Assembly (NCBI GenBank): GCA_002753725.1
Contig: PEAL01000065.1
Coordinates: 1 to 19,865, forward strand
DNA: 19,865 nt
From: Deltaproteobacteria bacterium
Lineage (GTDB): Bacteria; Desulfobacterota; Desulfobacteria; Desulfobacterales; Magnetomoraceae
Direction: 5' to 3'
Shown here: in pieces, positions 1,567 through 16,818 of the stretch
Numbering within the stretch: position 1 is the first letter of the stretch
How the letters are laid out: every line of letters begins with the position of its first letter
Notes under the pieces: generated by a model
Databases searched by the model: none
What the model saw: the letters and a program-made list of their open reading frames with translations, nothing else
Told to the model about the DNA's origin: nothing
Translations under genes and position numbers: made by a program

Positions 1567-1604
1567 GAATGCTCGAAAAATAAGTTCTCCATTTTAGATT
1601 GGAG

Positions 1605-1626
1605 TCCCAAAGCTTTAGCTTTGGGA
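1605..1626. terminator. Hairpin between convergent genes (possible bidirectional terminator)
   Basis: tcccaaagc (1605-1613), loop ttta, gctttggga (1618-1626): a 9-bp perfect stem. It sits between the stop of the + gene (1566) and the stop of the minus small ORF (1634). There is no strong T-run on either side. Confidence 0.35.
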
Positions 1627-1633
1627 GTTATTC

Positions 1634-1786
1634 TCAGGTTCTTTTATCGGATGCCAGAACAAGCAAGAGACCAATAATCGGTGTTAACAAAATGGATCCA
1701 AAAAAATATCCCCAAAAACCAAATTTTCGATTGGCTCCGAAAAGTCCAATGAACAAACAAATCATAAAATAGATTGCATAATGCAT
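1634..1786 (-). CDS. Small (50 aa) two-TM membrane protein, below the ORF-track length cutoff
   Basis: My own translation of the minus strand gives MHYAIYFMICLFIGLFGANRKFGFWGYFFGSILLTPIIGLLLVLASDKRT*. That is ATG at 1786-1784 and TGA at 1636-1634. The AAGGA of the heptamer repeat lies ~9 nt upstream of the ATG. The gene starts 19 nt downstream of the giant gene's stop on the same strand. The R-K-x-G-F-W-G...P-I-I-G-L pattern resembles a widespread small-membrane-protein motif that I recognise only by pattern. Confidence 0.6.
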   Translation of the reverse strand: MHYAIYFMICLFIGLFGANRKFGFWGYFFGSILLTPIIGLLLVLASDKRT

Positions 1787-1791
1787 ATGTG

Positions 1792-1816
1792 TTATTCCTT
1801 ATTCCTTATTCCTTAT
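1792..1816. repeat. Heptamer tandem repeat (ttattcc)x3.5, which is (ggaataa)n on the minus strand
   Basis: ttattcc occurs at 1792-1798, 1799-1805 and 1806-1812, followed by a partial ttat. On the minus strand this gives TAA in all three frames within 17 nt; the first (1808-1806) is the giant gene's stop. It also gives three AAGGA Shine-Dalgarno-like motifs ahead of the small ORF. Confidence 0.8.
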
Positions 1817-4800
1817 AAAAAATGATGGCTTCGGCACGCCGATTTTTTAGTTTTCCTTCTGGCGTTACATTTTCTGTAATGGGGCGTGTCTCGCCATAAC
1901 CTTTAGATGTCAGTCGCTGGGATGATATGTTAAAGGTTTTAATCAGATATGTTCGGATATAATCCGCGCGTTGCTGTGAAAGCTCTACATTTTTATCTTC
2001 ATCGCCGGAATTATCTGTATGTGCTTCAATCGTCGCATAAACATCAGGATACTGATTTAATAATTTTCCCAGAGCATTGATACGAGCATGGCTGATGGGT
2101 TTAATGGCTGATGCATAAAAATGAACATTTAAATCATAATGAAGCGATGTGTCTGATGTTGTCAGTTGTGCAAAGGCTGATTGAACAGGGGTTACATTAC
2201 CTGCCCGATCTCGTGCCTGGAGATGAATAAACCATCGGCCATCTTTTTGCGAGAGTGTCGTTTGGGTGATGGATTGAAAGTCACCCGATGGTATGGATGT
2301 CGGTTTTTGATCAATAACATATCGATAGTGAATGATTGGATCATTATCTTTCGCATGCCATGTCCATTGTTTTATTTTTTGAGGAATAATGTCATTAATC
2401 ATTGTATCAAAAACAGGAGGTGTATTATCCAATAATGCAGATACTGTATATACTTCACTGATATTCCCGGCCCTGTCCGTTGCCTGTACATGAATGTATC
2501 TTTTGCCATCACCCTCTGATATTTCAGCGGTATGATGGTCTTTAAAAGGCCCTGATGGCACTGAGATTTCCGATGAGTTGATGACCCATCGAAATGTGAC
2601 CTGTTGATCCATATCTGTAGCATTCCACGACCAGGTTTTCCTTTGTAAGGGTACAGGATCATCCTGAAGTCCATTAATCATCGGTTTTTGATTATCAATT
2701 ATTGCGGATACTGTTTTTACAGCACTGATATTTCCAGCGCGATCCTGTGCTTGTACATGAATATACCATCGCCCATTAACATCAGATAAGTGAGCCTGAA
2801 ATACAGGGCTAAAAACAGTTGATGGTGACGTTTCAGGTTTCTGATCAATATGATATCGGTACAAGATATTAGAATCAGCATCCCTGGCGGTCCATGACCA
2901 TTGAATCTGCTTTTGGGGAATCAAATGGTCTGCCAGACCTTCTATTTCCGGAGGAATCCTATCCAATATTGCGTAAACTGTTTTCGTGGCACTGACATTC
3001 CCAGCCCGGTCTTTGCCCTGGATATGAAAATACCAGACACCATTCGCATTGGAGAGGCCTGTTTCATTTGTGTGCGTAAAAGAACCTGTTGGCTCAGCAT
3101 CTGAGCGTTGATCAAGAAGCCATCGATAAGCAATCTGTTCATCATCATCGTTGGCGCGCCATTGCCATTGTTTGGATTGAACAGGTGTATCGTCATTTGA
3201 AAGGTGAGTGATTACGGGTGGTTTGTTATCTAACACACAATGGACAGTCAATACATTACTGATATTAAACGCCCTGTCTTGTGCCTGAACATGAAGATAA
3301 AACAAACCATTTTCATTTTCAAGCCGTGCTTGGGTTATTTGTGAGAATTGATTTTTCGGTACAGTGTAAGCATTTTGGTCAATGATATATCGATATTGAA
3401 TAAAGAGATCGTTATCTTTAGCGCTCCATTGCCATTGTTTGGATGTTGAAGGGGTGGTATCACTGGCAAGTTGTATTAGAATCGGTGGCTCATTATCCAA
3501 AATTGCTGAAACAGTTTTGACAGAACTTAGATTTCCTGCATAATCTTTCGCCTGAACATGTAAATACCATGTGCCATCTTTATCCGCGATGCGTGCCTTT
3601 GTGATATTTTTGAATAGGCCTGTTGGTATGGACTCAAAATTTTGATCAATAACATATCGATATCGAACATCAGTATGGGCATCATGGCTGTTCCAGTGCC
3701 ATTCTTTTTGTTGATGAGGAACTTTATCATCTTCCAGTCCAAAAATCTTTGGCGATTGATTATCCAATATGGCCACCGCTGTGGTAACCGGACTGATATT
3801 CCCTGCCTGATCTTTTGCCTGAATATGAATATACCATTTTCCATTGGATTGTTTCAACGTGGCTTGAGAGATATTCGTGTATTCTCCAGTTGGCACAGAA
3901 TCAGATGTCTGATCAATGGTATATCGATACAAGCATGACACTTCATTGGCAGCATCCCACGACCAGACCTTTTTTTGAACGGGAGTAAGATAATCAGTAA
4001 TGCCTGTGATTATGGGAGATGAACGATCGATGATTGCAGACACAGTCACGATATCACTCAAATTTCCAGCACGATCCCGTGCCTGTACATGGAGGTACCA
4101 CGTCCCTTCACCATTGGACAATTCACATGAATGATGATCGGTAAATGAGGTTGTTGGAATACCATTTGCCAATTGATCGACCTGATAGCGATATTGAGTA
4201 TATGAGTCATTATCCTCAACCTGCCATTGCCAATGGATGGTTTGTGCTGGTATTAAAACGTTATTCAAGCCGGTTATGACCGGAAGGGTAGTGTCTATCA
4301 CGATAGAAGCAGTGACAACATCACTGATATTATTCGCTGAGTCTCTGGCCTGTACATGAATAAACCAGAGCCCCTCCGTGTGGGACAGGCTCGCCTGGTT
4401 GATGGAATTAAACGAACCGGTTGGTTGTGATCGTTGTTTTTGATCAATGGAATATCGATAGTAAATGTTTGCATCAGTATCTTTGCCATACCATCTCCAA
4501 GTATGTGATTTCATAGGCTGATGAATATCTGAAAGCCCTGAAAGACTTGGGGCTGTACGATCAATAATGGCTGAAACGGTTTTGATGGGACTCAAATTAC
4601 CGGCGGTATCTTTAGCCTGTATGGATAAATAAAACACGCCTTCACCATCAGAAAAACTAACGGTATTGGTATAAGCAAACGTACCCGATGGTTTAATTTC
4701 AGGATGTTGTGTAATCACATAACGATACATCACATGAGGATCATCATCTCTTGCACGCCATGACCATTTTTTTTGCTGTGTTGGAATGGGATCAACGTTG

Positions 4801-7800
4801 ATATCCACTATTTCAGGGGCAATAGTATCCAGTCTGGCAGAGACAGTGACCACATTACTTACATTATCCGCCCTGTCCCTGGCCTGAACATGTAAATAGA
4901 ATATGCCATGATTATTGGAAATCTCTGCATATGTTATATCTGAAAAAGGACCAGAAGGTGTATATTGCTCAAAAGGGTTGATCGCATATCGATACATCAG
5001 TTCTGTATCCTGATCCTTTCCATGCCATATCCATTTTTTTTGGCTGACAGGGTTTATATCACTGGATAAGCCTTCAATGGTTGGAGGAATCGTATCAAAA
5101 TTTGCCCATACTGTTTGGGATGTGCTGATATTGCCAGCCCGGTCTTTTGACTGAACGTGAAGGAACCATCGGCCATTAATATTCTTTCCTGTAAAACAGG
5201 TCGTGGTATCAAAATCAGTTGAAAATTGTGCCTCGGAATGTTGAGTGAACGAATAACGCGATTTTACGCCGCTATCCTGATCAATTAATTGCCAGGCCCA
5301 TTGTTTGGACTGAACAGGATATGCAACAGAGGATAGCCCTTTTATTACAGGAGGAGTATTATCAAGAATACTTGACACTGTAACGATTTCACTGGTATTC
5401 CCAGCGCGATCCAGTGCCTGAACATGAATAAACCATGTCCCTTCAGCATTAGATAGATGAGCAGAGGTCACATGGGTAAAGGATGTTGTGGGGGATGCAT
5501 CGGCACGTTGATCGATAATATAGCGATGCAATACGTCTGGATCATTATCCAGGGTTGCCCATGTCCATGATTGATTCCTGACTGGATACAGATTATCTGT
5601 AAGTCCGATAATTTCAGGCGGGGTGTTGTCAATGATTGCAGAAACTGTGATGTGTTCACTAAGATTTCCTGCCTGATCTTTTGCCATAACATGCAAATAC
5701 CAGATGCCATCACCTTCTTCAATCGTGGCCTTGGCTTCTGGTTTGAATTGTCCAGATGGCGGTGCATCTTTATTTTGATCGATAGAAAATTGATAACTGA
5801 CGGTTTCATCCAAAGGTTCAGAATACCATGTCCATTTTTTCTGGTGTTTAGGTATAGAATCGTTTGAAAGCCCTTTAATGATTGGTGCTGTGTTATCCAA
5901 AATGGCTGAAACGCGAATTATTTCACTCAAATTGCCAGCACGGTCTTTTGCTTGAAGAAAAAGATAGCACATCTGATTTTCACCAGAGATTTCAACAGAT
6001 GTTTCATGCGTGTAAGAGCCGAACGGTTGTTTCTCAAGCGTTTTACTGATAGCATACCGATAGTCAAGGTATGGATCAGCATCATGGCCTTTCCATTGCC
6101 ATTTTTTTCTTTGTGTGGGAACGGGGTCATCATCTAACCCACTAATAACCGGGGCTGTGTTGTCCAGCAATTCAGAAACAGTGGCAACATTACTTTCATT
6201 TCCTGCGCGATCAATGGCCTGAACATGCAAATACCATCGGCCATCACCACTGGATATCGATGCCGTGTTCGTATATTGATAATTACCATCAGGTAAGGCG
6301 TTTTCATTTTGGGTGATTAAATACCGGTATACAATTTGGTGATCAGCGTCTTTTGCCTGCCAGTTCCATTTTATTTTTTTTACAGGATGCATTACAGGAG
6401 ATAATCCCGTGACTACCGGCTTTGTTGTATCGATGAGAGCTTTCACTGTAACCACAGAACTTAAATTGCCAGCAGTATCTTGTGCCTGTACATGGAGATA
6501 CCAAAGACCATCCGTTTCATAAATGGGTGTTGAATGAATCGTTGAAAAAATTCCCAATGGTTTGGAATCATAGAATTGATCAATTAAAATTCGAAAGCGA
6601 ACAGTGGGGTCAGCATCTTCTGCATGCCAAGAAAAAGATTTACTTCTTACCGGCGTTACTTCCCTGTCATCAGAAAGCCCCTTAATAACAGGCGGTAATT
6701 GATCCAACAGACAATATACATGATAAACCTTACTGAGATTGCCTGCCCAGTCTTTTGCCTGAACATGAAGATACCACCGCCCATCGACATCTTTAATTGT
6801 TGCGGTAGTTGTTTTTTTAAATTCTGTTTCAATGAGGGACTGTTCTTTCTGGTCAATGGTATACCGAAATGTCGCATTTTCATTTGAATGGGTTTTCCAG
6901 GCCCATATTTTCTGTTTTTTAGGAACGGAATCATTTTCAATACCCACAATTCTGGGAGGCACATTATCCAGAACCACAGAGACCGTGACAACATTGCTGA
7001 GATTTCCGGCGCGATCTGTTGCCTGAACATGGAGATAGCATAAGCCTTCAATATCTTTGGCAATCGCAGAATGTGTTGAATTAAACGGTCCTTCAGGTTT
7101 TGAATCAGGATGATGATCGATCAAATACCTGAAAAGAATAGTGGTATCATCATCCTTTGCTGACCATGTCCATCGTTTAACTGTTGTGGACGTTAATGAA
7201 TCAGACAGGCCGATAATTATTGGCGCTGTGGTATCAAGAATTGTCTGGACAGTGACAGTATTGCTTTCATTGCCTGCTGTATCGCATGCCTGAAGATGTA
7301 GATACCAGATACCATCATCATAATAATTTTTATCCAGTTGAATCATGCGGGTGAATGTATATGCACCTTTTGGATGAGAATCGGCAAACTGATCGACAAG
7401 ATATCGAAACCGAACATTGGGGTCAGCATCGTTTGCTGATAGCATCCATTTTTGTATGGACACTGGCGTAATCGAATGAGCAATATCATTAATGAGTGGT
7501 GGTATGGTGTCAATTGTAATGGATAACAACTCAGAAATACTGATATTTTCATCACTCTGGGTTTGATAATGTGCAGATAATTCATGTGTCCCTTCAGTCA
7601 AATCAATGTTAAACTGAAAAATATCTGCTGTGATGACTGTCGTTGCCCCTGATAAAGCATTTCCATCAACAAGAAGAACCACTGTCTGGTCGATATCTCC
7701 GAATCCTTGAATGTGTAAATTTTTAGATTGGCGGGTGATCCTATCGGTATTGAAAAAACCTGTATCATGTTCAGGTTCCAAGGATAGATTATATGGTTTT

Positions 7801-8693
7801 GGGTAGTGTGAATAAATGCCTTCTCCCCAGAAAATGTCAGCATGTTCTGTTTTATTCACCGCATTTTGTTTATTTCGAATATTGGTATACGCAATTGAAA
7901 TGGCATTGGAATCAGCATATTCAGACAAATAAATTTCATAGGGCATTTGTTCATTCCACAACGTTGCATGCGTCATAGTAAGAGAAGAATGATAAGCAAA
8001 AATGGCAGAGGAAACAGGGGCATCATTAACGGGGTGATTTTGGGTTAAAACCGTGCGAAATATATTTATCGTTGATTTTTGGGCGTAAATGGCTATTCCG
8101 GAAGTGGCTTTATTGTTCATCAATGTGACATTCGATAAGATCATATCTGAACCCTGACAATATATCCCTGCACCTGAACTGTTTGCTGTATTATGGACAA
8201 TGGCTGTTTGAGTGAGAGTCATGTTAGCGTACACGCAATATATACCACCGCCTTGTTCTGCGGTATTTTCTTTGATAATGACATTCACGAATTGAGGTGA
8301 TGCACCTCTGCAATAGACCCCTCCGCCGAGGTAAAAGGATTTTATGTCAGCTTTTCCATTGATGAGCGAAACATTACTGATGTGCGTTTTTTGATCCACA
8401 ATACCACCCAATGATTCATCAAAAAGCAACACACTTGAACGTTGGCAGCCATCAATGATTGTCTTGTTCTTGTCTTCACCAGACAGCTGAATGCCATTGA
8501 CTTTTGGCCATATAATATTTTCACGATAATTCCCATTTTTAATCAAAATGGTATCGTTGGATGTTGCAGAATTCAATGCTTGCTGGATGGTTTTAAAATC
8601 CGCTGGTACATGTAACATACGTGCATATGTGATTGAACATGCAAATAATAAAAAAAGAATACAAAATAAATATGGTTTAATGCTTGTTCTCAT
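1806..8693 (-). CDS. Giant (2295 aa) envelope or surface protein with four parts: lipoprotein-type signal, Pmp-like parallel beta-helix, 20 Ig-like tandem repeats, C-terminal OmpA-like peptidoglycan-binding domain
   Basis: - **Start:** chosen at M38 of the ORF-track frame (ATG 8693-8691), 11 nt after the upstream gene's stop. The resulting N-terminus is MRTSIKPYLFCILFLLFAC, with lipobox L-F-A-C.
- **aa ~62-335:** GGGVYC/GGGIYC/GAGIYC alternating with (I/V/L)xxNxA, the GGA(I/L/V)+FxxN pattern of polymorphic-outer-membrane-protein / PbH1 beta-helix repeats.
- **aa ~360-436:** an Ig-like module.
- **Repeat array:** 20 repeats (see the repeat feature).
- **C-terminus (nt ~1809-2126):** IEAHTDNSGDEDKNVELSQQRADYIRTYL...GYGETRPI...NRRAEAIIF, which matches the OmpA_C-like signature (TD..G....N..LS..RA..V..YL / G.G...P / NRR.E). 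Confidence 0.93.
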   Translation of the reverse strand: MRTSIKPYLFCILFLLFACSITYARMLHVPADFKTIQQALNSATSNDTILIKNGNYRENIIWPKVNGIQLSGEDKNKTIIDGCQRSSVLLFDESLGGIVDQKTHISNVSLINGKADIKSFYLGGGVYCRGASPQFVNVIIKENTAEQGGGIYCVYANMTLTQTAIVHNTANSSGAGIYCQGSDMILSNVTLMNNKATSGIAIYAQKSTINIFRTVLTQNHPVNDAPVSSAIFAYHSSLTMTHATLWNEQMPYEIYLSEYADSNAISIAYTNIRNKQNAVNKTEHADIFWGEGIYSHYPKPYNLSLEPEHDTGFFNTDRITRQSKNLHIQGFGDIDQTVVLLVDGNALSGATTVITADIFQFNIDLTEGTHELSAHYQTQSDENISISELLSITIDTIPPLINDIAHSITPVSIQKWMLSANDADPNVRFRYLVDQFADSHPKGAYTFTRMIQLDKNYYDDGIWYLHLQACDTAGNESNTVTVQTILDTTAPIIIGLSDSLTSTTVKRWTWSAKDDDTTILFRYLIDHHPDSKPEGPFNSTHSAIAKDIEGLCYLHVQATDRAGNLSNVVTVSVVLDNVPPRIVGIENDSVPKKQKIWAWKTHSNENATFRYTIDQKEQSLIETEFKKTTTATIKDVDGRWYLHVQAKDWAGNLSKVYHVYCLLDQLPPVIKGLSDDREVTPVRSKSFSWHAEDADPTVRFRILIDQFYDSKPLGIFSTIHSTPIYETDGLWYLHVQAQDTAGNLSSVVTVKALIDTTKPVVTGLSPVMHPVKKIKWNWQAKDADHQIVYRYLITQNENALPDGNYQYTNTASISSGDGRWYLHVQAIDRAGNESNVATVSELLDNTAPVISGLDDDPVPTQRKKWQWKGHDADPYLDYRYAISKTLEKQPFGSYTHETSVEISGENQMCYLFLQAKDRAGNLSEIIRVSAILDNTAPIIKGLSNDSIPKHQKKWTWYSEPLDETVSYQFSIDQNKDAPPSGQFKPEAKATIEEGDGIWYLHVMAKDQAGNLSEHITVSAIIDNTPPEIIGLTDNLYPVRNQSWTWATLDNDPDVLHRYIIDQRADASPTTSFTHVTSAHLSNAEGTWFIHVQALDRAGNTSEIVTVSSILDNTPPVIKGLSSVAYPVQSKQWAWQLIDQDSGVKSRYSFTQHSEAQFSTDFDTTTCFTGKNINGRWFLHVQSKDRAGNISTSQTVWANFDTIPPTIEGLSSDINPVSQKKWIWHGKDQDTELMYRYAINPFEQYTPSGPFSDITYAEISNNHGIFYLHVQARDRADNVSNVVTVSARLDTIAPEIVDINVDPIPTQQKKWSWRARDDDPHVMYRYVITQHPEIKPSGTFAYTNTVSFSDGEGVFYLSIQAKDTAGNLSPIKTVSAIIDRTAPSLSGLSDIHQPMKSHTWRWYGKDTDANIYYRYSIDQKQRSQPTGSFNSINQASLSHTEGLWFIHVQARDSANNISDVVTASIVIDTTLPVITGLNNVLIPAQTIHWQWQVEDNDSYTQYRYQVDQLANGIPTTSFTDHHSCELSNGEGTWYLHVQARDRAGNLSDIVTVSAIIDRSSPIITGITDYLTPVQKKVWSWDAANEVSCLYRYTIDQTSDSVPTGEYTNISQATLKQSNGKWYIHIQAKDQAGNISPVTTAVAILDNQSPKIFGLEDDKVPHQQKEWHWNSHDAHTDVRYRYVIDQNFESIPTGLFKNITKARIADKDGTWYLHVQAKDYAGNLSSVKTVSAILDNEPPILIQLASDTTPSTSKQWQWSAKDNDLFIQYRYIIDQNAYTVPKNQFSQITQARLENENGLFYLHVQAQDRAFNISNVLTVHCVLDNKPPVITHLSNDDTPVQSKQWQWRANDDDEQIAYRWLLDQRSDAEPTGSFTHTNETGLSNANGVWYFHIQGKDRAGNVSATKTVYAILDRIPPEIEGLADHLIPQKQIQWSWTARDADSNILYRYHIDQKPETSPSTVFSPVFQAHLSDVNGRWYIHVQAQDRAGNISAVKTVSAIIDNQKPMINGLQDDPVPLQRKTWSWNATDMDQQVTFRWVINSSEISVPSGPFKDHHTAEISEGDGKRYIHVQATDRAGNISEVYTVSALLDNTPPVFDTMINDIIPQKIKQWTWHAKDNDPIIHYRYVIDQKPTSIPSGDFQSITQTTLSQKDGRWFIHLQARDRAGNVTPVQSAFAQLTTSDTSLHYDLNVHFYASAIKPISHARINALGKLLNQYPDVYATIEAHTDNSGDEDKNVELSQQRADYIRTYLIKTFNISSQRLTSKGYGETRPITENVTPEGKLKNRRAEAIIFYKE
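2163..7496 (-). repeat. 20 tandem, diverged ~89-aa (~267-bp) coding repeats inside the giant gene
   Basis: Each unit carries W-x-W...D-x-D...(Y/F)-R-Y...D-Q...P-x-G...G-x-W-(Y/F)-(L/I)-H-(V/I)-Q-A-x-D-x-A-G-N-x-S...(L/I)-D-N-x-P-P-x-I-x-G-L. I counted 20 occurrences of the HVQA.D.AGN core (e.g. WYLHVQAKDWAGNLS, WFIHVQARDSANNIS). The D.AGN...V.V.D..PP.I ending resembles HYR/bacterial Ig-like beta-sandwich repeats, but I cannot assign the exact family by eye. The copies are diverged at the DNA level, so this is not a recent amplification. Confidence 0.9.
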
Positions 8694-8704
8694 GTTCTGT
8701 CCAT

Positions 8705-10858
8705 TTAATTGACGACAATCGAATAAAAATAATAAAAATAACCTGCTATCATAAAAAGAGATAAAAAAAGTCCTGTACATTTTACTCTTGGTATTGCCTG
8801 ACAAAAGCCTTTTCGATTCAAGCCGGCAATAATAAGTGTCAACACAAATGAAAGGCCTGTCATAAGGTAAAGAAGAATAAACCAGTGATCAAATGGGATA
8901 AGATAATCAACAGATATTTCAGACAGGAAGTAATATAAGAACGATACCACTCCCAGGCATGACAGATGGGCAAACATCGCAATCAGTGTATGGGAAGGAA
9001 TGATGAATAAAAGGCAGGATAAAAGACCCATAATAATGCATCCAGGAACAAAACATCGCAACCACTGATGAAAAGAATCTCGATGAATAAGGATTTGAAT
9101 TCTATAATCCGGGTTATGTTCTTGATTAAATTGCGAATAATCAACCTTAGGTTGCGTTGTCATGCCATAAGCATAGCAGCGATTCAGTTTCCAGTTGGAA
9201 AGGTTAAATCGATCATTGTCATTGAGACTGATTTCTTTGTTAATATATCTCATTTCATTACTTTTTAATGTATTATGATAAAAATGAATACCTAACTTTT
9301 GTTTATCAAAAGGGTATGTATGGTACAAAAAATTTATCTTAAAGGATCCCTTAATGCTGTATTTTTTATACAAGACACCATCAAGGGTTCCACTTTCAAC
9401 AGGATCGTCTAAAACAACAGGTGTTGTTGCATTTAAAAAGCAAATATCTGCGGGGTCGATTACCGGGGTGTCATACAAGAATGTCAGAAAAAAATGAGCC
9501 GTAAAGAACGATTCTTTTATATCCAGTTCAACGATTTCAGTTTTTACCTGAACAATCGATACGTGTTGAATATCTGATTCATAAGGATTTGTATGGTTTA
9601 ATTTAGATTTCATGTCCATCAGAAACTGTTGGTGAAAAGGAACAAGTACCCCTTTTTGATAGTGACCCAGACCTGTATTTTTTATTGCATTTCCATTATC
9701 ATCAAAAAAGATATCACCGCAGATTCCTTTAAAAGCATAATCAGGTTTCTTTATATCGGTAAGAAAATTTTTTATTTGACGTCTGTACTGGTAAGATCGT
9801 GCAGTGGGGTCAATTTCCATTTTTCTAAGAATATCTGCCATCAGAAGTGTGGCATCATAATAATTTGTTGCAATAGACGATGGAACGTTACGATATTTTT
9901 CATAATAGGCCTTAAAAAAGTCTACAGATTGAGAATTAAACAAATAATTCGCAAAGATATCATTTGCAGTTGTGAAAACACCATCTGAATAATAACCAGG
10001 AATTGATTTTTCCAGGGCAATTGTTCGTAATTCGTTTTGAAACGATTCATATGAAAATACATGACCATTGGTTATAAAAAAGTGAGGATCAAAAGCGTTT
10101 AATTTTTCAATAATCTGAACAGCCAGGCGATCAGATGTTGCAATAAAAACAGAGCTTTTTGCTTTAGATGTTTTAAACATTCTAACGATGGTTTGCAGTT
10201 GTGGATAAATATTTTTTTCTTCATCAATATCAATTGTATTTTCAATTTTAATGCCGTTATTTTTGAAAAAATTCATATATGTATTTTTGATATCACGACT
10301 ATAAATATCTTTAGATGCAATAATGGTTACAGGTGACCATTTACAATACTGCTTTGAAAACATAGCCAGAAATGTTGCCTGATGGAGAGAGGATGGTATG
10401 GATCGAAAATACCATTCATTGTTTAATGTAACATTCGTTGCTGGTGCTGAGGCGGTAATCGCGGGGATACCTTCTTTTAAATAAACCTGCCCGGCAGAAA
10501 AACTGGCAGCGCTGCTATAATGCCCAATAACAAAAAGCAGATGGTCATTTCTTGAGAATGAATTGGCAACTTTCATGGCAAGATTGGTTTTATTCATGTC
10601 ATCTTTATAGATATATTTCAATTTTTTACCATCAATACCGCCATTTGCATTGATTTTTTCTATACATAAATCAATACCCCGAAGCATTTCTTTGCCATAT
10701 TCTTCATCCGCCCCACTGAATGGGCCTGCAACACCAAACAGGCACACATCTTGATCACTGTGATAGATATCAAATACACTCAATAGTAGTAGTATACCGA
10801 TAAACAGTATCACAATTAAAATAATCAATAGGCCTTTATTTAAAATGAATTGTTTCAT
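8705..10858 (-). CDS. Type-I periplasmic binding protein (LivK/ANF-receptor-like) fused to a pentameric ligand-gated ion channel (Cys-loop superfamily) module: paralogue A, 717 aa
   Basis: - **N-terminus:** signal anchor LLIILIVILFIGILLLLSVF.
- **aa ~38-410, PBP-I motifs:** FGVAGPFSGADEEYGKEMLRGIDLCIEKINANGGIDGKKL, FVIGHYSSAAS, IPAITASAPATNVT, EWYFRSIP.
- **aa ~432-592, pLGIC extracellular-domain pattern:** IVQVKTEIVELDIKESFFTAHFFLTFLYD, CFLNA, and the signature loop YPFDKQKL (nt 9293-9316).
- **Transmembrane part:** IHRDSFHQWLRCFVPGCII (pre-M1 Arg plus M1 Pro) and four TM helices with a very short M3-M4 loop, including an IPFDHWF M3 start. Confidence 0.85.
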   Translation of the reverse strand: MKQFILNKGLLIILIVILFIGILLLLSVFDIYHSDQDVCLFGVAGPFSGADEEYGKEMLRGIDLCIEKINANGGIDGKKLKYIYKDDMNKTNLAMKVANSFSRNDHLLFVIGHYSSAASFSAGQVYLKEGIPAITASAPATNVTLNNEWYFRSIPSSLHQATFLAMFSKQYCKWSPVTIIASKDIYSRDIKNTYMNFFKNNGIKIENTIDIDEEKNIYPQLQTIVRMFKTSKAKSSVFIATSDRLAVQIIEKLNAFDPHFFITNGHVFSYESFQNELRTIALEKSIPGYYSDGVFTTANDIFANYLFNSQSVDFFKAYYEKYRNVPSSIATNYYDATLLMADILRKMEIDPTARSYQYRRQIKNFLTDIKKPDYAFKGICGDIFFDDNGNAIKNTGLGHYQKGVLVPFHQQFLMDMKSKLNHTNPYESDIQHVSIVQVKTEIVELDIKESFFTAHFFLTFLYDTPVIDPADICFLNATTPVVLDDPVESGTLDGVLYKKYSIKGSFKINFLYHTYPFDKQKLGIHFYHNTLKSNEMRYINKEISLNDNDRFNLSNWKLNRCYAYGMTTQPKVDYSQFNQEHNPDYRIQILIHRDSFHQWLRCFVPGCIIMGLLSCLLFIIPSHTLIAMFAHLSCLGVVSFLYYFLSEISVDYLIPFDHWFILLYLMTGLSFVLTLIIAGLNRKGFCQAIPRVKCTGLFLSLFMIAGYFYYFYSIVVN

Positions 10859-10889
10859 AAGTTGCTATAAATTATATAAATTATTATTC

Positions 10890-13037
10890 TTAAAGCGGAA
10901 AACAACAGTTGACCACATAAAAAGATATCATCATTATCGTAATCAAACATGCTGCCTTTCCCAAAAATTGAACGAACGCCATTGATTGCTTATAATGATG
11001 GATCGATAAGCCTATCAGTCCCATTTGAAACATGATTGTCAACCCAATAAAACCATACAAACACATAAACAGCATTTCAGAGAATGTCAGAAATGGTATG
11101 TGTAATTTGAAATATAAATGGCATACAGTAGTGATCATCAGGAATATGATATTGATCACCAATGAAATTTTTATTCGATGCACAGGACAAAAATAACTGA
11201 TCGATGTCAGTAGAAAAAGAATAAGACAGGCAATAAAAATAAGCTTTTCCTGCTGATTCAGGCGCCTTTGAATATGAATATCAACAGCGAATTCAGATGC
11301 GTTATTCTTAATATCTCCTGACAATGGGCTTTTTATTAAATAAGGCATCGCGTCCACAGATAGCCATGTTTCAGAATTCAATTTAAAACTTATTTTATTT
11401 AGCTGATCAATAGCAAATATAAACGTGTTTGTGTTTACGCTTGTATCCCGAAAACTTATGGTCAGTTTTTGGCTGTCTATGGGATATCGTTTAAGGTCAA
11501 AGTGATGATAAAATACACTATCCACGGTGTATAACAGATGTGTGGTACCTTGTTTATTCATAGTTTTTTTAGGATTTTTCAATACAAGCGGAGAAACAGC
11601 GTTGGTAAATTGAATCCATTCAGGTTGAAAATGCTTTTGAAAACTAAACCAGAGATTAAACCGGGCATGAAATGTACCATCTATCGTATTGATTTGATTT
11701 AATTGAATATCATCTATCCTTACATACACTAATTGTTTTTTGATAAAATAATCATCATTGTTTGCCATAACGTCATTATCTAATGCTTTTTGAATCAAAT
11801 CATTGGAAATATCATTGAGTGAAACAGCGATGTATTGATGAAAGGCGGGAATATAATGGCCCTTGTATAATTGAGTGACAATCATTGACTTTTTCGTTTC
11901 GCCAACACCATTAAAAAATATTTTTCCGGTTAAGCCCTCCACACAGTGATTCCTATCATAGAATGTTTCAAGTGCATTTTTGAATTTTTTTCTGATGTCC
12001 CGGATAGCCCCCTGTATCTCAATTTTTCTTAATGCTTCAATGCTAACATGTGCCAGATCATAAGATGTCGTACTGATTAATGAAGGCGGTACTCCATAAA
12101 AGGTATAATAATTCTTTTCAAAAATTCTATTGATTTGTTTTGAAAAATACTGAGAAAACAACGATACAGAGTAGATACCATTTGAATAAAAACCGGGTGA
12201 GGATTGTTCTTTGGGATACGCTTTGAATCCATCGATAAAAATTTGAGATGCCAAGGAATCTGCGCCCATAATGATTTGATTCAGTTGCTTCTTTTTCAAA
12301 CCAACCACCAATTTTACAGACGTATCAGCGTGGGTTGCCAAAAAAAACATATCAGGTTTTAACGCATGCGTATCAATGGCCTGTACAATAGTATCAACCT
12401 GATCATCCATACTCGTTGAACTCGAATCCAATGGATATTGTTCAACAATCTCAATTCCTTTTTCCAGTGCTTGTTCTGTAAATACTGCTGCTAAATTTTT
12501 ACCATATGCCCCTGTATCATAAACAATCGTTGCGGTTTTAAGATTCAATGCTGATTGTGCGTAAGCAGCAAGAAAATCACTTTGACAGGAATTTGGTGGG
12601 ACAATTCTGAACAACCATTCATTCATAATCGGCAAGTCATCAGATGTTGCTGAACCGGTTATTGATGGAATCATGTTGTTTTCATAAATAGAGGCAGCCG
12701 CAGTGCAGCAGGAACTGAAATAATGTCCCAGAACAAAAAGAATGTCCTTGTTTCGAACAATTTGTTTTGCTGCACCGACAGCGCCTTCTTCGGTGCCTTT
12801 ATCGTCAAAAACAAGCAGCTTGATCTGGCTGCCATGAAGTCCTCCTGAGGCGTTTATTTGATCAATATAGAATTGTACCCCTTTAACCATTTCATTTCCA
12901 TAAAAAGACTGGGAACCACTGAATGTACTCGCAACCGCAATATAAAGCGTTTTCTTGCCATAATACAAATGAATCGTATAAAATATGGAAATCAACATGC
13001 TTATCAGTAAAATTATAATAATATATTTTTTCATCAT
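10890..13037 (-). CDS. Type-I periplasmic binding protein fused to a pLGIC (Cys-loop superfamily) module: paralogue B, 715 aa
   Basis: - **Start:** chosen at M20 of the ORF-track frame (ATG 13037-13035), 2 nt after the upstream TAA (13042-13040). This gives MMKKYIIIILLISMLISIFY.
- **PBP-I motifs:** YIAVASTFSGSQSFYGNEMVKGVQFYIDQINASGGLHGSQIKL, FVLGHYFSSCC, IPSITGSATSDDL, EWLFRIVP.
- **pLGIC part:** LVYVRIDDIQLNQINTIDGTFHARFNLWFSF, QFTNA, HHFDLKRYPIDSQKLTISF (YPIDSQKL at nt 11463-11486), IHIQRR, then four TM helices.
- It is collinear with paralogue A throughout. Confidence 0.85.
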   Translation of the reverse strand: MMKKYIIIILLISMLISIFYTIHLYYGKKTLYIAVASTFSGSQSFYGNEMVKGVQFYIDQINASGGLHGSQIKLLVFDDKGTEEGAVGAAKQIVRNKDILFVLGHYFSSCCTAAASIYENNMIPSITGSATSDDLPIMNEWLFRIVPPNSCQSDFLAAYAQSALNLKTATIVYDTGAYGKNLAAVFTEQALEKGIEIVEQYPLDSSSTSMDDQVDTIVQAIDTHALKPDMFFLATHADTSVKLVVGLKKKQLNQIIMGADSLASQIFIDGFKAYPKEQSSPGFYSNGIYSVSLFSQYFSKQINRIFEKNYYTFYGVPPSLISTTSYDLAHVSIEALRKIEIQGAIRDIRKKFKNALETFYDRNHCVEGLTGKIFFNGVGETKKSMIVTQLYKGHYIPAFHQYIAVSLNDISNDLIQKALDNDVMANNDDYFIKKQLVYVRIDDIQLNQINTIDGTFHARFNLWFSFQKHFQPEWIQFTNAVSPLVLKNPKKTMNKQGTTHLLYTVDSVFYHHFDLKRYPIDSQKLTISFRDTSVNTNTFIFAIDQLNKISFKLNSETWLSVDAMPYLIKSPLSGDIKNNASEFAVDIHIQRRLNQQEKLIFIACLILFLLTSISYFCPVHRIKISLVINIIFLMITTVCHLYFKLHIPFLTFSEMLFMCLYGFIGLTIMFQMGLIGLSIHHYKQSMAFVQFLGKAACLITIMMISFYVVNCCFPL

Positions 13038-13039
13038 AT

Positions 13040-15721
13040 TTAATTCAGTTGCCAATCTTTGATATTCTGTCCACCAAGAGCCATATGAGACCAATTTTTA
13101 ATGCGTGGTTTTATAAGGTAATGGTCGGTTTCATAGAAAATGGGGATTACAAGCGTCTCTCTTTGGGTCAGAATCTCATCGATCATTAAATAATAGTCTT
13201 TTCTTAAATGTAAATTTTTTTCTTTTATGGCTTTATTCAACACATCAGATAATTCTGTATTGATATAACTGTTCTGGCGGCTAAGCTTGTTATATGAATC
13301 AAACAAAAAACTATTGGCATCAGGAAAAGTCGCATACCAGTCAGAAATGAAAATATGAGCCTGTCTGGGATTGTATGAACCAGGTTCTGTAAGACCGATG
13401 ACAGTGGATTGAAGATTCAATCTTTTTTTAAGTAGTAATGAAATCGCTTTGGCAATTTGTTTATGGGAATCATGGATTCCTGAATCAATTAGAATTGCAG
13501 GGCATCCTTTTCCGCCAGGATAGCCCGCTTCGGCTAACATTTTCATGGCATGAGTGGGATGGTAAACAGGCCGTTTCTCCTGACTTGACAGCAATAATAA
13601 ATCAGGGGGTATAAACATTTTCATTGCCTTTTGTTGCCCATGAATGACGAACCTGGTAATAAATGAGCGATCAATAACAGACGCAATGGCTTTTCGTAAC
13701 AAAACATTATCCACAGGGGATTGATTCACATTGAAAAAAAGGCCGGTTGTAGAAAAATTGGTACGTTCTTGATAGTCATGTCGGGTTTCAGGTTGCTTTT
13801 TGACCGAATCAAGAAAACGCGATGGGATGTTTATAAAAGCCCCCCCAAGAATATCCAGTTGATTGTTTTGATACATATGCAAAGCAAGCAGGCTGTTCAT
13901 GATAACGTTATAACGCACTTCCTGAATGGCAACAGTTGAAGCATCATAATAGCGGTCATTTTTTCGTAAAATAATCAAAGAGCCTTTTTCATGACAAGCC
14001 AGTTGAAAGGGACCATTACTGACAATATGTTCAGGGGCTGTCCATTCAGCAGCCCATTTTTGAATCGTTGCCGAAGGCAGAGGGCTGAAAACAGGCAGTC
14101 CGGTGATTGAAGGAAAAAATGCAGCAGGATAGGACAGGATAAAATCAATGGTATAATCATCAATAACGTTGACCCCCAGTTTTGATGCATCTTTGATGAA
14201 TCCTAGATGAATGTCCTGGGCATTTTTGAGTATGAATAAGTGTTTTACATCCGGGCATTGGGTTTCAGGGGTCAAATTTCTAACTATTGCAAATCTCAGA
14301 TCGTGAGCTGTCACCGGCTGTCCGTTTGTCCAGAACACATTTTTTCGCAATTTAAACCGGTAACGATCTAAGGTTTCATTCGGTTCCCAACTCGTGGCAA
14401 AGTCCGGGGAAGACTGATAGGTGTCAGGATGGTATTGAGTCAGGCGTATAAACAATTGCTTTGATAATTCAGTTGTTATTTTATCATGGGCAAGCCCCGG
14501 GTCTAATCGTGAAACATCATTGTTACAAAACCTGTTTATATTGAAAGAATCGACCAGGTCAAAAAAATCATCCTGCTTTTTTTCTTTTCGATTAATAATG
14601 ACAAATTTTCCATCTTCATATTTTTTAAAAAATAAAGCGGATGGCCCGATATTTCCTTGTCGTGTCAGATGATATTGACTTAAAACACCATCCCAATGTT
14701 CCATGAATCTAAGAGTTGTATTTAAAACCATTGGTAAACATGAATTACTTTTTTCCATTGACGTTTTAAGCAAATGAATCAGATCATAACCCCGGGCAGC
14801 AAATGTTTCAGGCTCAACGCCAAAGGCTTGCGTAAAACTGGAAACAAAATCTTGTGTTAATTTTCTGGGAAGTGTGTTGTCAAAGTTGCTTGGGATGATG
14901 GTTCCTTCAGCTTTTTTTCCAGTATTACTCCAAAAATAGCGTGTGTCAATTTCATCGGTGGCCATAATTGGGGTATTGATATTCAACTCTCTCATCTGAT
15001 TTACCACCAATGCTGCGATGTTATCTCTGCATAATAATAAAACAATGTCAAAGGATTCATTTTTTAAATCACTTAAGATATCTCTGAAATTTGTTTCAGA
15101 TCGAGAAAAGGATTGTTGAGATACAATCGCAAGGCCTTTTTGTGTGGCCTCTTCATAAAAAATATCAGCAAGAATCTTACTGGTTTTCTGGCGGTCATTA
15201 AGGATAATAATGCGCTGATAGTGGTTTTGAGAGAAACATTCAGCAATTCTTCTAACATATACTTGATCTGGCATATAATTATTAAAAATATAGGCCCCGC
15301 CATAGCGTAATAAATCCGCCCCTGTAGAAAAAAATAATATGCCAGCTTCTTTGTATACGATTGATGCAGAAATAGCATTTTGAGGACTAAAATGTCCGAT
15401 AACAGCAAAAACATTTTTATTTTTAGCTAATTTTTCTGCAATGCGAATGGATGTTTTTTCATCATCATAATCATAAAACAAAAGCGGTCTGATCCTTTTC
15501 CCCATAACGCCGCCATCGCTGTTTATTTCATCCATAGCCAGTTTAACGCCATGAGCAAACTGTGTGGTAGCAGGGAATGCGTCCACAATTCCAATGAAAA
15601 GATCATCGGTTGATCGGGTCAAATGCTTCATGCGCTCTTCATTGGAAATAACCTTGTTACATGAAAAAAATGTAAGAAGGAGTACAATAAAAGCAAAATG
15701 TAAAACGATGATTGGTTTCAT
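13040..15721 (-). CDS. Probable lipoprotein fusing two solute-binding domains: N-terminal LivK-type PBP-I plus C-terminal family-5 (OppA/DppA/NikA-type) SBP, 893 aa
   Basis: - **Signal:** MKPIIVLHFAFIVLLLTFFSC (Cys21, an imperfect lipobox F-F-S-C).
- **aa ~40-378, PBP-I:** FIGIVDAFPATTQFAHGVKLAMDEINSDGGVMGKRIRPL, FAVIGHFSPQNA.
- **aa ~390-893, family-5 SBP pattern:** LDPGLAHDKITTELSKQLFIRL, SWEPNETLDRYRFKLRKNVFWTNGQPVTAHDLRFAI, VSNGPFQL, LRKNDRYYD.
- It ends 2 nt before the next gene's ATG. Confidence 0.88.
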   Translation of the reverse strand: MKPIIVLHFAFIVLLLTFFSCNKVISNEERMKHLTRSTDDLFIGIVDAFPATTQFAHGVKLAMDEINSDGGVMGKRIRPLLFYDYDDEKTSIRIAEKLAKNKNVFAVIGHFSPQNAISASIVYKEAGILFFSTGADLLRYGGAYIFNNYMPDQVYVRRIAECFSQNHYQRIIILNDRQKTSKILADIFYEEATQKGLAIVSQQSFSRSETNFRDILSDLKNESFDIVLLLCRDNIAALVVNQMRELNINTPIMATDEIDTRYFWSNTGKKAEGTIIPSNFDNTLPRKLTQDFVSSFTQAFGVEPETFAARGYDLIHLLKTSMEKSNSCLPMVLNTTLRFMEHWDGVLSQYHLTRQGNIGPSALFFKKYEDGKFVIINRKEKKQDDFFDLVDSFNINRFCNNDVSRLDPGLAHDKITTELSKQLFIRLTQYHPDTYQSSPDFATSWEPNETLDRYRFKLRKNVFWTNGQPVTAHDLRFAIVRNLTPETQCPDVKHLFILKNAQDIHLGFIKDASKLGVNVIDDYTIDFILSYPAAFFPSITGLPVFSPLPSATIQKWAAEWTAPEHIVSNGPFQLACHEKGSLIILRKNDRYYDASTVAIQEVRYNVIMNSLLALHMYQNNQLDILGGAFINIPSRFLDSVKKQPETRHDYQERTNFSTTGLFFNVNQSPVDNVLLRKAIASVIDRSFITRFVIHGQQKAMKMFIPPDLLLLSSQEKRPVYHPTHAMKMLAEAGYPGGKGCPAILIDSGIHDSHKQIAKAISLLLKKRLNLQSTVIGLTEPGSYNPRQAHIFISDWYATFPDANSFLFDSYNKLSRQNSYINTELSDVLNKAIKEKNLHLRKDYYLMIDEILTQRETLVIPIFYETDHYLIKPRIKNWSHMALGGQNIKDWQLN

Positions 15722-15746
15722 GAAATAATTCTATTGGCTGTGATGA

Positions 15747-16616
15747 TTAATTTTTATCACCATTTGTTTCTGTATTCAGAATTAAAGGCAATCCATTCTT
15801 GCCACTGCCAATAATAATAATTTTTGAATTTTGTGATTCTGCAAGTTTTTCAGTGGCTTTAATCCCTTGCCAATTGAGATATTGTTCTTTATTGAAAAGG
15901 GATGATGCAATGGTGTTCAAATGATCTCGGATACCTTCTGCTTCAATTCTTTTTCGGGTTGCTTCTTTTTTTTCTCGCTCAATAACATAAGTATGGGCTT
16001 CCGCCAGATGTTTTTGTTTGATTTTATTACGAATGGATTCGGCCACTTCTTCAGGAAGTATGATCCCCCGAACAAGAACATCATCAATATTGATATAGCG
16101 TTGAGCGACCTGTTCTATGGCTTTATTGATAGCCTCCACAATTAATTTTCTTCCCGTGGTGTAAACTTCTTCAGCATTCAATGTACCAATAATTTCACGA
16201 ATAACAGCTTCTATTTCAGGAATAATCACCTTATCCGCATACTCCATTCCCACTTGCTGATGTAATACACCAAGAAGTTTATATTCAGGCGCATAGCGAA
16301 TAGAGAGTTTAATATGAACTTGCAAACCATTTTTAGTGAGGACATCCATTTCCGGTTTAATTTCCTGGATACGAACATTATAGACGTACATTTTATCCCA
16401 GGGAAGAATTAAGTGAAGACCTTCTGAATAAACAGAAAGGATATCTGTTCCACCAAAAAAACGACTCCAAAACACCGCTGCTTCACCTGGATAAATATTG
16501 TATACAATCATATTAAACAGGAAAGCAAAGGTCAATAAAGCAATCAAAATGGTCAGAATGAGAGAAAAGGTATAATTTTTTAATTTGATAAAAAAGTTCT
16601 TGAACCTGTTTTTCAT
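15747..16616 (-). CDS. SPFH/Band-7 (prohibitin/HflC-like) membrane protein, 289 aa
   Basis: The start is chosen at M28 of the ORF-track frame (which opens on TTG), giving MKNRFKNFFIKLKNYTFSLILTILIALLTFAFLF, an N-terminal membrane anchor. SPFH core: PGEAAVFWSRFFGG...GLHLILPWDKMYVYNVRIQE...TKNGLQVHIKLSIRY. A charged coiled-coil follows: KQKHLAEAHTYVIEREKKEATRKRIEAEGI. It is the first gene of the minus-strand operon. Confidence 0.88.
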   Translation of the reverse strand: MKNRFKNFFIKLKNYTFSLILTILIALLTFAFLFNMIVYNIYPGEAAVFWSRFFGGTDILSVYSEGLHLILPWDKMYVYNVRIQEIKPEMDVLTKNGLQVHIKLSIRYAPEYKLLGVLHQQVGMEYADKVIIPEIEAVIREIIGTLNAEEVYTTGRKLIVEAINKAIEQVAQRYINIDDVLVRGIILPEEVAESIRNKIKQKHLAEAHTYVIEREKKEATRKRIEAEGIRDHLNTIASSLFNKEQYLNWQGIKATEKLAESQNSKIIIIGSGKNGLPLILNTETNGDKN

Positions 16617-16818
16617 GATAAATTTCTTTTCATGGATGATAATTAAACAGTAAAATGGGGTGGAAATCAATGATTGTATTGTTATTATGAACAGCAAATG
16701 ATAATAACTAAAAAAAAATGAAATGTCTATGAAAAAAAATGAAAGAAAGGGCAGCCATCACAAAGCATATGGCAACAAATCTATAAATCATTACATAAAT
16801 ATATAAAGATGTAGACCA
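16617..16818. promoter_or_regulatory. Divergent intergenic/promoter region between the minus-strand operon and the plus-strand FAD-protein gene
   Basis: A 202-bp AT-rich gap between divergently oriented start codons. Candidate sigma70-like promoter on the minus strand: -35 TTGATT (16670-16665), 17-nt spacer, -10 TTTAAT (16647-16642). A direct repeat aaaaaaaatgaaa occurs at 16711-16723 and 16732-16744, a 21-bp period. Motif-level guess only. Confidence 0.35.

Follow-up and report, generated by a model that had tools for sequence, protein, structure and literature searches.

What do solute-binding domains serve in a gene cluster that lacks an importer? This question is raised by a cassette of six minus-strand genes in a DNA stretch of 19,865 nt (hereafter the window), apparently the entire contig PEAL01000065.1, whose encoded proteins come from a metagenome-assembled genome (MAG) of Candidatus Magnetomorum sp., a multicellular magnetotactic bacterium. 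An initial annotation, made from the letters alone, had described the cassette as a candidate envelope sensing and channel system that combines an SPFH scaffold protein, orphan binding proteins, ligand-gated ion channels of the pentameric type (pLGICs) and a giant peptidoglycan-anchored protein. Our analysis indicated that the cassette is very likely a conserved functional module containing genuine pLGIC homologues. Its conserved core consists of the SPFH protein, a dual solute-binding protein (dual SBP), the channel or channels and a 50-aa membrane protein. A Pfam scan of the window identified four solute-binding domains, three Peripla_BP_6 and one SBP_bac_5, and no ABC, TRAP/TTT, histidine-kinase or methyl-accepting chemotaxis protein domain, in agreement with what had been read from the sequence.

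Two cassette proteins join a binding-protein clamshell to a pLGIC core

Channel subunit 1 (minus strand, 10890-13037; 715 aa) and its paralogue channel subunit 2 (minus strand, 8705-10858; 717 aa) have the same architecture, namely a signal or anchor segment, a LivJ-like type I periplasmic binding protein domain (PBP-I), a pLGIC beta-sandwich and four transmembrane (TM) helices. Peripla_BP_6 matched channel 1 at E 9.8e-38 and channel 2 at E 1.2e-32, and the Peripla_BP_6/ANF_receptor matches span residues ~40-410 in both proteins, with the pLGIC core coming next; PBP-I is thus N-terminal to the core in both, as in the class of PBP-I::pLGIC fusions. HAAT/LivJ matches of the clamshells lay at E 1e-20 to 1e-16. 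In LivJ, residues S79, A100-T102 and Y150 contact the alpha-amino-acid moiety of the ligand; their equivalents in the clamshells fall in invariant or nearly invariant columns of the channel family.

The channel core proposed in the initial annotation found no support in Pfam, since a search at E<=10 with the C-terminal halves (~300 residues) of both channels gave no Neur_chan_LBD or Neur_chan_memb match, but it was borne out by profile and fold comparisons. A phmmer search with channel 1 matched sTeLIC at 1.5e-5 and GLIC at ~1e-4 across the extracellular and TM domains. A profile of 12 C-terminal halves matched pLGICs in the PDB at 1e-17 to 1e-13 over the extracellular and membrane domains, the best being the ELIC-GABAA chimera (1.9e-17), followed by GLIC (~1e-14) and by sTeLIC and GluCl (~1e-13). 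In the AlphaFold2 model of channel 1 residues 409-715 (pLDDT 80), a beta-sandwich is followed by four helices (187-208, 211-235, 244-271 and 275-304, model numbering). The top 50 Foldseek matches of this model in the PDB were all pLGICs (E ~1e-15, probability 1.00), at only ~12-16% identity to the solved channels. The Pro-loop motif YP[FI]DxQ is present as YPIDSQ in channel 1 and YPFDKQ in channel 2, its Pro being invariant in 15 sequences, and the pre-M1 Arg is kept and shares its alignment column with the Arg that GLIC contributes through its extracellular domain to a GLIC-GABAA chimera. The missing Pfam match reflects model sensitivity and not a structural difference; a distant homologue (P0013) has a precomputed PF02932 match.

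Channel 2 is a diverged paralogue: the pLGIC halves of the two channels share 22% identity (E 3e-14, 274 aa), and its single-sequence search reached only ELIC at E ~0.1, the protein belonging nevertheless to the family profile. By hydropathy, the C-terminal part of channel 1 has four TM segments and that of channel 2 has three clear ones. Both channel proteins are a LivJ-like clamshell joined to a complete pLGIC core. At NCBI, channel 1 bears no other name than 'ABC transporter substrate-binding protein', and one homologue is likewise listed at JGI only as a branched-chain amino-acid transport substrate-binding protein.

Two homologues depart from this architecture. The channel at L154:4464-8627 has 1387 aa, in which PBP-I::pLGIC is followed by two cadherin domains, Big_9 and a sugar-type Peripla_BP_4, so that it is a pLGIC with periplasmic extensions on both ends. 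The homologue at L006:10001-12547 (P0012) carries a C-terminal cyclic-nucleotide-binding domain (PF00027) in the place of M4, and its sequence implies a cytoplasmic cyclic-nucleotide input into a pLGIC-like protein.

Conservation of gene order across diverged loci

In four channel-anchored relatives (L001-L004; 43-66% channel identity), the order SPFH, dual SBP, channel, channel, giant protein was kept and the flanks were unrelated, and in distant relatives (~28-34% identity) the Band_7, dual SBP and channel genes still lay together. A scan of one genome per species revealed ~48 loci with a fused channel. Mapping by tblastn placed the triad of SPFH, dual SBP and channel in 17 loci, counting context contigs and genome-scan loci together, and these include the complete genome of Desulfonema magnum 4be13, where the cassette lies at ~2.933-2.955 Mb of NZ_CP061800.1. 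Anchoring on the dual SBP gave 52 true dual-SBP loci in metagenomes, many of them from one metagenome. An SPFH gene was present in all 42 of the metagenome loci with at least 1.2 kb of upstream sequence (immediately upstream in 40, after the channel in 2), and a fused channel lay immediately downstream in 37 of the 40 with at least 2.6 kb on that side. The loci are not near-duplicates, because the 71 dual SBPs of the window and the fetched loci form 56 clusters at 80% identity and 30 at 60%.

The pairwise divergences of SPFH protein, dual SBP and channel were correlated among 34 triads (Mantel r 0.54-0.86, p<=0.001), a correlation that is partly shared phylogeny. In a second cassette of the same MAG all three genes group with different relatives, and each paralogous cassette therefore keeps its own SPFH gene. 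The proposal that these genes belong together was thus upheld: SPFH, dual SBP and one or more fused channels remain neighbors in dozens of loci that have diverged and whose flanks are unrelated. Across Desulfobacterota loci, channels in the first and second positions formed separate clades in a neighbor-joining tree without support values. This pattern fits an old duplication with retained order, and the separate clades hint at heteromers or at divided specificity.

A 294-aa protein upstream of the channel pair in an Anaerolineae locus (L007) was considered as a divergent SPFH protein and rejected, as it had no Pfam match and no similarity. In one lineage, a 133-aa HepT-like gene (toxin-type nucleotidyltransferase partner) lies between the channel genes (L002:6026-6427, L003:12171-12572), with no adjacent antitoxin gene called. 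The genomes with PBP-I::pLGIC genes in the genome scan (L010-L057) are strikingly often those of filamentous or multicellular organisms, a tally uncontrolled for sampling or phylogeny. Examples are Desulfonema magnum, Desulfococcaceae HSG8/HSG9, Candidatus Marithrix, Thioploca, Candidatus Halobeggiatoa, Trichodesmium, Spirulina, Dapis, Xenococcus, Chloroflexia/Anaerolineae/Ardenticatenaceae, Candidatus Moduliflexus and Candidatus Magnetomorum.

The SPFH protein is prohibitin-like

The SPFH gene (minus strand, 15747-16616) encodes a 289-aa prohibitin-like Band 7 protein that scored well above the curated Pfam threshold (Band_7, 88.6 bits against a cutoff of 23.6) and has an N-terminal membrane anchor, a TM segment at residues ~10-35; it thus qualifies as a member of the SPFH family. 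Among solved structures, prohibitin-2 and prohibitin-1 come closest to it (E 1e-19 to 1e-16, residues 22-261), and it is similar to the mitochondrial prohibitins in this full-length homology. The SPFH domain is predicted to be periplasmic (N-in/C-out), because 54 homologues have on average 5.0 K/R in the N-terminal tail as against 0.7 in the 15 residues after the TM segment. This predicted placement would be the equivalent of the mitochondrial intermembrane space. Assignment as an HflK or HflC equivalog was rejected (TIGR01933, 38.3 bits against a cutoff of 159.4; TIGR01932, 29.7 against 134.4). The window holds a single SPFH gene, with no pair of the HflK/HflC kind, and no FtsH or NfeD. The protein therefore differs from the HflK/C-FtsH system, both in not being an equivalog and in having no such partner in the window.

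In eukaryotes, SPFH proteins are known to pair with ion channels, namely MEC-2 with DEG/ENaC and stomatin with ASIC. A literature search for pLGICs with SPFH proteins or prohibitins found no SPFH-pLGIC pairing.

The dual solute-binding protein

The second cassette gene (minus strand, 13040-15721) encodes an 893-aa protein in which an N-terminal LivJ-like PBP-I (Peripla_BP_6, E 5.8e-30, residues 53-367) is fused to a C-terminal OppA-like cluster-C SBP (SBP_bac_5, E 2.4e-62, residues 438-810). NCBIfam matches to OppA and to Leu/Ile/Val SBPs were all far under their equivalog cutoffs. The signal peptide contains the lipobox LLTFFSC, whose Cys21 is invariant in 16 homologues, and the protein is predicted to be a bacterial lipoprotein.

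In eight other loci from Thiotrichales and other Gammaproteobacteria (L023, L025, L032, L033, L041, L049, L035) and Lentisphaerales (L042), a gene of ~555-730 aa contains SBP_bac_5 only, unfused to PBP-I, and lies directly upstream of one PBP::pLGIC gene. They lack an SPFH gene in the vicinity, apart from L035, in which the channel is followed by SPFH and a separate PBP. These loci are a reduced or rearranged version of the cassette.

A 50-aa membrane protein marks a broader module

The last gene (minus strand, 1634-1786), which the initial annotation had merely listed, encodes a 50-aa membrane protein of an unnamed family with the motif G-x-N-[RK]-K-x-G-F-W-G-Y-[FL]-F-x-S-x-L-L-x-P-x-I-G. It had no Pfam or NCBIfam match, and Pfam at E<=10 gave only sub-threshold DUF1269 noise. 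Homologues were found at E 1e-12 to 1e-23 in at least 13 cassette loci of the genome set and ~20 metagenome loci, either just 5' of the SPFH gene or just 3' of the last channel, and the family comprises 2013 protein clusters. Band_7 and Peripla_BP_6 genes adjoined it in five of five sampled contexts anchored on this protein. It is among the most conserved parts of the cassette.

Four of these five contexts consist of an SPFH gene, a plain or extended PBP-I gene and the 50-aa gene, with DUF697 and/or an exporter. No pLGIC gene was called in the four, which were checked by tblastn in L155 and L156 only. A broader module of SPFH protein, PBP and 50-aa protein thus exists without a channel, and the fused channel may be an output that was added to it later.

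Locus L154 (GCA_015232875.1, JADFYV010000036.1) holds a second cassette composed of SPFH, dual SBP, channel, 50-aa protein and DUF697 genes. Its locus-tag prefix, HQK75, is shared with the NCBI record of a small protein identical to that of the window.

The giant repeat protein is a clade-specific accessory

The fifth gene (minus strand, 1806-8693) encodes a secreted protein of 2295 aa with a signal peptide, a beta-helix-like head, Big_13 (E 8e-45), 20 OmpL47-type repeats (E 2e-58 to the barrel domain of this type in NCBIfam) and an OmpA domain at the C-terminus (PF00691, E 6.2e-17, residues 2232-2322 in the numbering of the long ORF). Nineteen repeats were matched at ~89-aa spacing, and one double-length gap implies the twentieth. 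Tandem Repeats Finder detected no DNA-level repeats in the gene, and the 20 repeats are visible in the protein only. Models of YiaD, Pal and Omp38 matched approximately the last 100 residues at E 1e-12 to 1e-24, and the protein is accordingly predicted, from this C-terminal domain, to bind peptidoglycan in the manner of OmpA. Its repeats match the domain of the OmpL47-type multi-barrel surface proteins of Leptospira, and its C-terminus those of OmpA/Pal-type peptidoglycan-binding proteins. It differs from both groups in having 20 repeats, a beta-helix-like head and no porin barrel, in the position of its gene in an operon with channels, and in a repeat number that varies among relatives. A candidate lipobox (LLFAC) and export through the Slam-like protein encoded nearby were considered and rejected, since the Cys lacks conservation and the signal sequences of homologues terminate in signal peptidase I sites of the Ala-X-Ala type. 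The protein is probably not a lipoprotein.

The initial annotation had counted this protein as part of the system, and this did not hold for the core. Homologues of ~1840-2560 aa are confined to ~8 loci, comprising the clade of the window and one other architecture; they lie after channel 2 in L001, L002, L004, L076 and L078, and after the SPFH gene of a rearranged cassette in L116. The giant protein is thus a clade-specific accessory. In the clade of the window its gene sits between the last channel gene and the 50-aa gene, a position that looks like an insertion. The GC content of ~0.41-0.42, as against ~0.33 for both channel genes, is consistent with a clade-specific insertion, and may reflect amino-acid composition (TM-rich versus repeat domains) or a separate origin.

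Other lineages have different large proteins at this position, such as an MscS-like channel of 1300 aa in Desulfonema magnum (L055:12460-16365), L024, L051 and L086. This protein has a long coiled-coil periplasmic region and a C-terminal MscS-type domain, and its gene lies directly 3' of a PBP::pLGIC gene, with a second PBP::pLGIC gene next in L055 and L051.

The cassette as a probable transcription unit

The six genes are arranged head-to-tail on the minus strand with intergenic gaps of 25, 2, 31, 11 and 19 nt, computed from the ATG starts chosen in the initial annotation; the layout given there proved exact. Upstream, a divergent intergenic region of 202 nt (16617-16818, no strand assigned) separates the cassette from a plus-strand FAD-oxidoreductase gene and is the presumed promoter region of the cassette. 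It contains a sigma-70-like match on the minus strand (16729-16701, TAGACA-17-TATTAT, 10/12). This match is not evidence of function, because promoter-like matches across the window were not above shuffled expectation (70 versus 76.7), and such matches were not used as evidence. Downstream, terminator-like hairpins lie between convergent 3' ends at 1587-1626, comprising a 9-bp palindromic stem at 1605-1626 and another hairpin at 1587-1604 with a U-run behind it on the minus strand. The RNA fold of 1570-1640 (minus strand) had -21.1 kcal/mol, with z = -3.98 against shuffles. Both flanking elements named earlier, the divergent region and the convergent hairpin, are therefore present. A terminator scan of the minus strand gave a few weak matches (5-7 bp stems), all within coding sequence and none in the gaps, which are too short for one, consistent with the earlier statement that internal terminators are lacking. 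Hydropathy revealed an N-terminal hydrophobic segment or TM helices in all six products, as had also been proposed. The cassette is very probably a single transcription unit.

Proposed function

We favor, with moderate confidence, the reading that the cassette specifies an ion-channel assembly in the inner membrane that faces the periplasm and senses ligands, a function inferred throughout from sequence. An amino-acid-like ligand would close the N-terminal clamshells that sit atop the channel extracellular domain, and clamshell closure would gate ion flux, in an arrangement that recalls glutamate receptors with their LIVBP-like layers and DeCLIC with its N-terminal domain. A peptide ligand may also be sensed through the dual lipoprotein, as suggested by its OppA-like half; this protein could capture or present ligand in trans, as a co-receptor or ligand shuttle. 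The two paralogues would form a heteropentamer, or else two channels differing in specificity. The prohibitin-like protein may assemble into a ring or cage at the periplasmic face and there corral or tune the channel, a role that can be likened to that of HflK/C on FtsH and of stomatin-type proteins on eukaryotic channels, and the 50-aa protein would be an auxiliary membrane subunit. In the Candidatus Magnetomorum clade, the giant peptidoglycan-associated protein recruited to the operon may connect the assembly with the cell surface. The binding domains may feed the channels, and the SPFH protein may organize the complex, as was proposed at the outset.

Several observations weigh against this reading. 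At the channel itself, the Pfam search was negative, M2 is unusually hydrophobic, and an attempt at M2 prime numbering and selectivity through alignment with GABA-A alpha1 was rejected because the register is ambiguous by 1-2 residues. No canonical selectivity motif was assignable, and the channel proteins could conceivably be a non-conducting receptor. The two channel clades come from a neighbor-joining tree without support values. The case for conservation is lowered by the many loci from one metagenome and by the shared phylogeny within the distance correlation. Finally, the main partner of the SPFH protein may be the binding protein or the ABC exporter and not the channel, because modules of SPFH protein, PBP and 50-aa protein occur in which no channel was called.

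Flanking genes and alternative explanations

A census with Pfam covered 136 flanking ORFs in 54 triad loci; DUF697 was the leading family (13 ORFs), followed by ABC_tran (10 ORFs). The ABC genes of relatives encode half-transporters of ~540 aa with one transmembrane and one nucleotide-binding domain, often two in tandem, of the TIGR01194 cyclic-peptide-export/YojI family (one at 338.6 bits against a cutoff of 286). They were present in ~25 of 78 metagenome loci and 6 of 17 genome loci. Their interpretation as ABC-F or sugar-type twin ATPases was rejected on account of the N-terminal membrane domain of ~340 aa and the cyclic-peptide export/YojI match. At L156:9755-11311, a 518-aa protein joins these two recurrent cassette neighbors, its N-terminal ~350 residues resembling the membrane domain of a cyclic-peptide-type ABC exporter (28% identity, E 5e-41) and its C-terminus being DUF697.

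Genes for polyketide synthases (PKS), nonribosomal peptide synthetases (NRPS), thioesterases or phosphopantetheinyl transferases (PPTase) lay within 10 kb of the cassette or the channel-less module in 18 of 158 fetched loci (for example L028:12293-15607, L157:6220-13106 and L006:18091-22413). They include a tandem acyltransferase-enoylreductase, a PPTase with a large PKS, thioesterases and an NRPS-like reductase protein.

Such neighbors, together with the tandem TIGR01194 half-transporters and the OppA-like, i.e. peptide-binding, half of the dual lipoprotein, would suit autocrine or paracrine metabolite signaling. The core, DUF697 and the cyclic-peptide-type exporter would then handle a self-made peptide or polyketide, which would be exported to the periplasm and sensed there by the binding domains, with the pLGICs as electrical output in some lineages. 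We consider this rather unlikely as an account of the cassette, since the window itself lacks an ABC exporter, a DUF697 gene and biosynthetic genes, biosynthetic neighbors are missing from most cassettes, and the adjacency of exporter and sensor would equally suit export or self-protection without signaling.

The same census bears on nutrient scavenging, in which the binding proteins would supply ABC transporters, located elsewhere or being YojI/BacA-like neighbors that import, and the pLGIC part would be mainly an anchor. Characterized members of all four binding-domain families serve ABC importers, the channel gene is annotated as one of their substrate-binding proteins at NCBI, and some exporter-fold ABC proteins, Rv1819c/BacA and IrtAB, act as importers. 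However, no importer permease was present in the window or among the families matched by at least two of the 136 flanking ORFs. The YojI/SyrD family has no known SBP dependence, and the pLGIC core retains its gating motifs and four helices across deep divergence. Scavenging is for these reasons an improbable explanation. Only exporter-type ABC genes occur in relatives, so that the cassette does not belong with the SBP-dependent ABC importers. The binding domains had been described as orphans, and this is correct with respect to SBP-dependent importers, whereas the stronger claim of no ABC partner at all is true of the window only.

A third possibility is envelope maintenance, in which the prohibitin-like cage, sometimes with a YcjF-like DUF697 protein, would serve as a device for membrane quality control or for microdomains, with the channels and lipoprotein simply as clients or cargo and the giant protein as an unrelated adhesin that happens to be co-transcribed. 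SPFH assemblies of known structure, those of HflK/C and prohibitins, surround proteases and client proteins, and the SPFH protein of the window is their homologue; DUF697 recurs in 13 of the 136 flanking ORFs, and the giant gene is clade-specific and differs in GC content from the channel genes (0.41 versus 0.33). On the other hand, neither the window nor 14 neighboring loci with Pfam gene tables contained an FtsH-like or NfeD protease, and no protease was among the 25 most frequent Pfam families of the flank census. Moreover, paralogous cassettes each keep a co-diverging SPFH gene, which points to a dedicated partner and not to a general device. We give this explanation little credence.

That the genes form no functional unit and are neighbors expressed independently, as sigma-70-like matches within the cluster might suggest, is highly improbable given gaps of 2-31 nt, order and adjacency kept at 30-50% identity with unrelated flanks, and promoter-like matches not above shuffled expectation.

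The ligand-sensing channel assembly can be taken one step further, to a bacterial counterpart of a component of the chemical synapse in multicellular or filamentous bacteria, a proposal that we regard as a long shot. A self-produced amino-acid-like or peptide-like signal would be released to the shared periplasm or intercellular space, in relatives through the adjacent exporter. The dual lipoprotein would capture it, and heteromeric clamshell-pLGIC channels in a prohibitin ring would detect it. Chemical signals between cells could thereby be converted into fast electrical responses by which the collective is coordinated, for instance in the synchronized motility of multicellular magnetotactic bacteria. 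The recurrent association with giant adhesin-like proteins and the cadherin-fused channel of the same MAG might link the channels to sites of cell-cell contact.

Comparison with known systems

PBP-I::pLGIC ('ART-LGIC') fusions were predicted in silico by Tasneem, Iyer, Jakobsson & Aravind (2004, Genome Biol 6:R4, PMC549065), who also noted operons in which bacterial pLGICs occur with separate binding proteins, and suggested that they act as chemoreceptors. The channels of the window resemble these fusions in having PBP-I N-terminal to a complete ligand-binding domain and 4-TM core. The examples of that study are single alphaproteobacterial genes whose operon partners are PBP-II or Cache proteins. 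The cassette goes beyond them in its SPFH protein, dual PBP-I and SBP_bac_5 lipoprotein, paired channels, 50-aa protein and DUF697/ABC-exporter neighbors. Our literature searches found no experimental characterization of the PBP-I::pLGIC fusion class, no description of this gene combination under pLGICs with SPFH proteins or prohibitins or under operons of SPFH proteins with periplasmic binding proteins, and nothing relevant on ligand-gated channels in multicellular magnetotactic bacteria. The initial annotation had been aware of no earlier description of the combination. This stands for the cassette as a whole but not for the PBP-I::pLGIC fusions and the operons with binding proteins, which were already on record; the multi-gene cassette, SPFH link, paired channels and 50-aa family appear to be undescribed, and the channel class is known in silico.

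Among solved channels, GLIC, ELIC, sTeLIC and DeCLIC have a core homologous to that of the window (profile E 1e-13 to 1e-17, Foldseek ~1e-15). DeCLIC (Desulfofustis) is the sole characterized pLGIC with an N-terminal domain. As in the channels of the window, a large extra periplasmic domain precedes the extracellular domain in a protein of sulfate-reducer lineage; however, the DeCLIC domain consists of paired jelly-roll-type Ca-binding lobes and is unrelated to the clamshell binding protein. The clamshell family itself is common to the window, the amino-terminal domain of ionotropic glutamate receptors and the Venus flytrap of metabotropic ones (ANF_receptor, E 1e-21 to 1e-24), with weak direct matches of the window clamshells to mGluR4/5/8. 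Glutamate receptors likewise stack a binding-protein layer on a membrane signaling core, but this core is a tetrameric pore or a 7-TM domain, in contrast to the pentameric Pro-loop channel core of the window. The likeness is one of design, by analogy, and not of family membership.

GLIC, ELIC and DeCLIC are major structural models among the prokaryotic pLGICs. The cassette provides the first consistent genomic context for the possible role of bacterial channels of the PBP-I::pLGIC type, comprising dedicated binding proteins, a prohibitin-like scaffold, a small membrane protein and often a peptide-type exporter, and it suggests that heteromeric pLGICs occur naturally in bacteria and that bacterial SPFH proteins partner with channels. 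Its presence in Desulfonema magnum 4be13, a cultured organism with a complete genome, makes it experimentally accessible; Candidatus Magnetomorum is uncultured.

Other genes of the window

A 500-aa protein encoded on the plus strand at 18214-19716 combines N-terminal TPR repeats with a C-terminal Slam barrel match (PF04575, 33.3 bits against a cutoff of 22); its gene is not kept beside the cassette in relatives. At the other end of the window, two adjacent plus-strand genes (191-967 and 973-1566) converge on the cassette terminator and are absent from the conserved context of related loci. Their only family match was a sub-threshold one to TrbL. The polytopic membrane proteins that they encode are weakly paralogous, at 28% identity over 75 aa (E 2e-6), and have in common the motif ...E[SA]FN..F.KN[ED]D.

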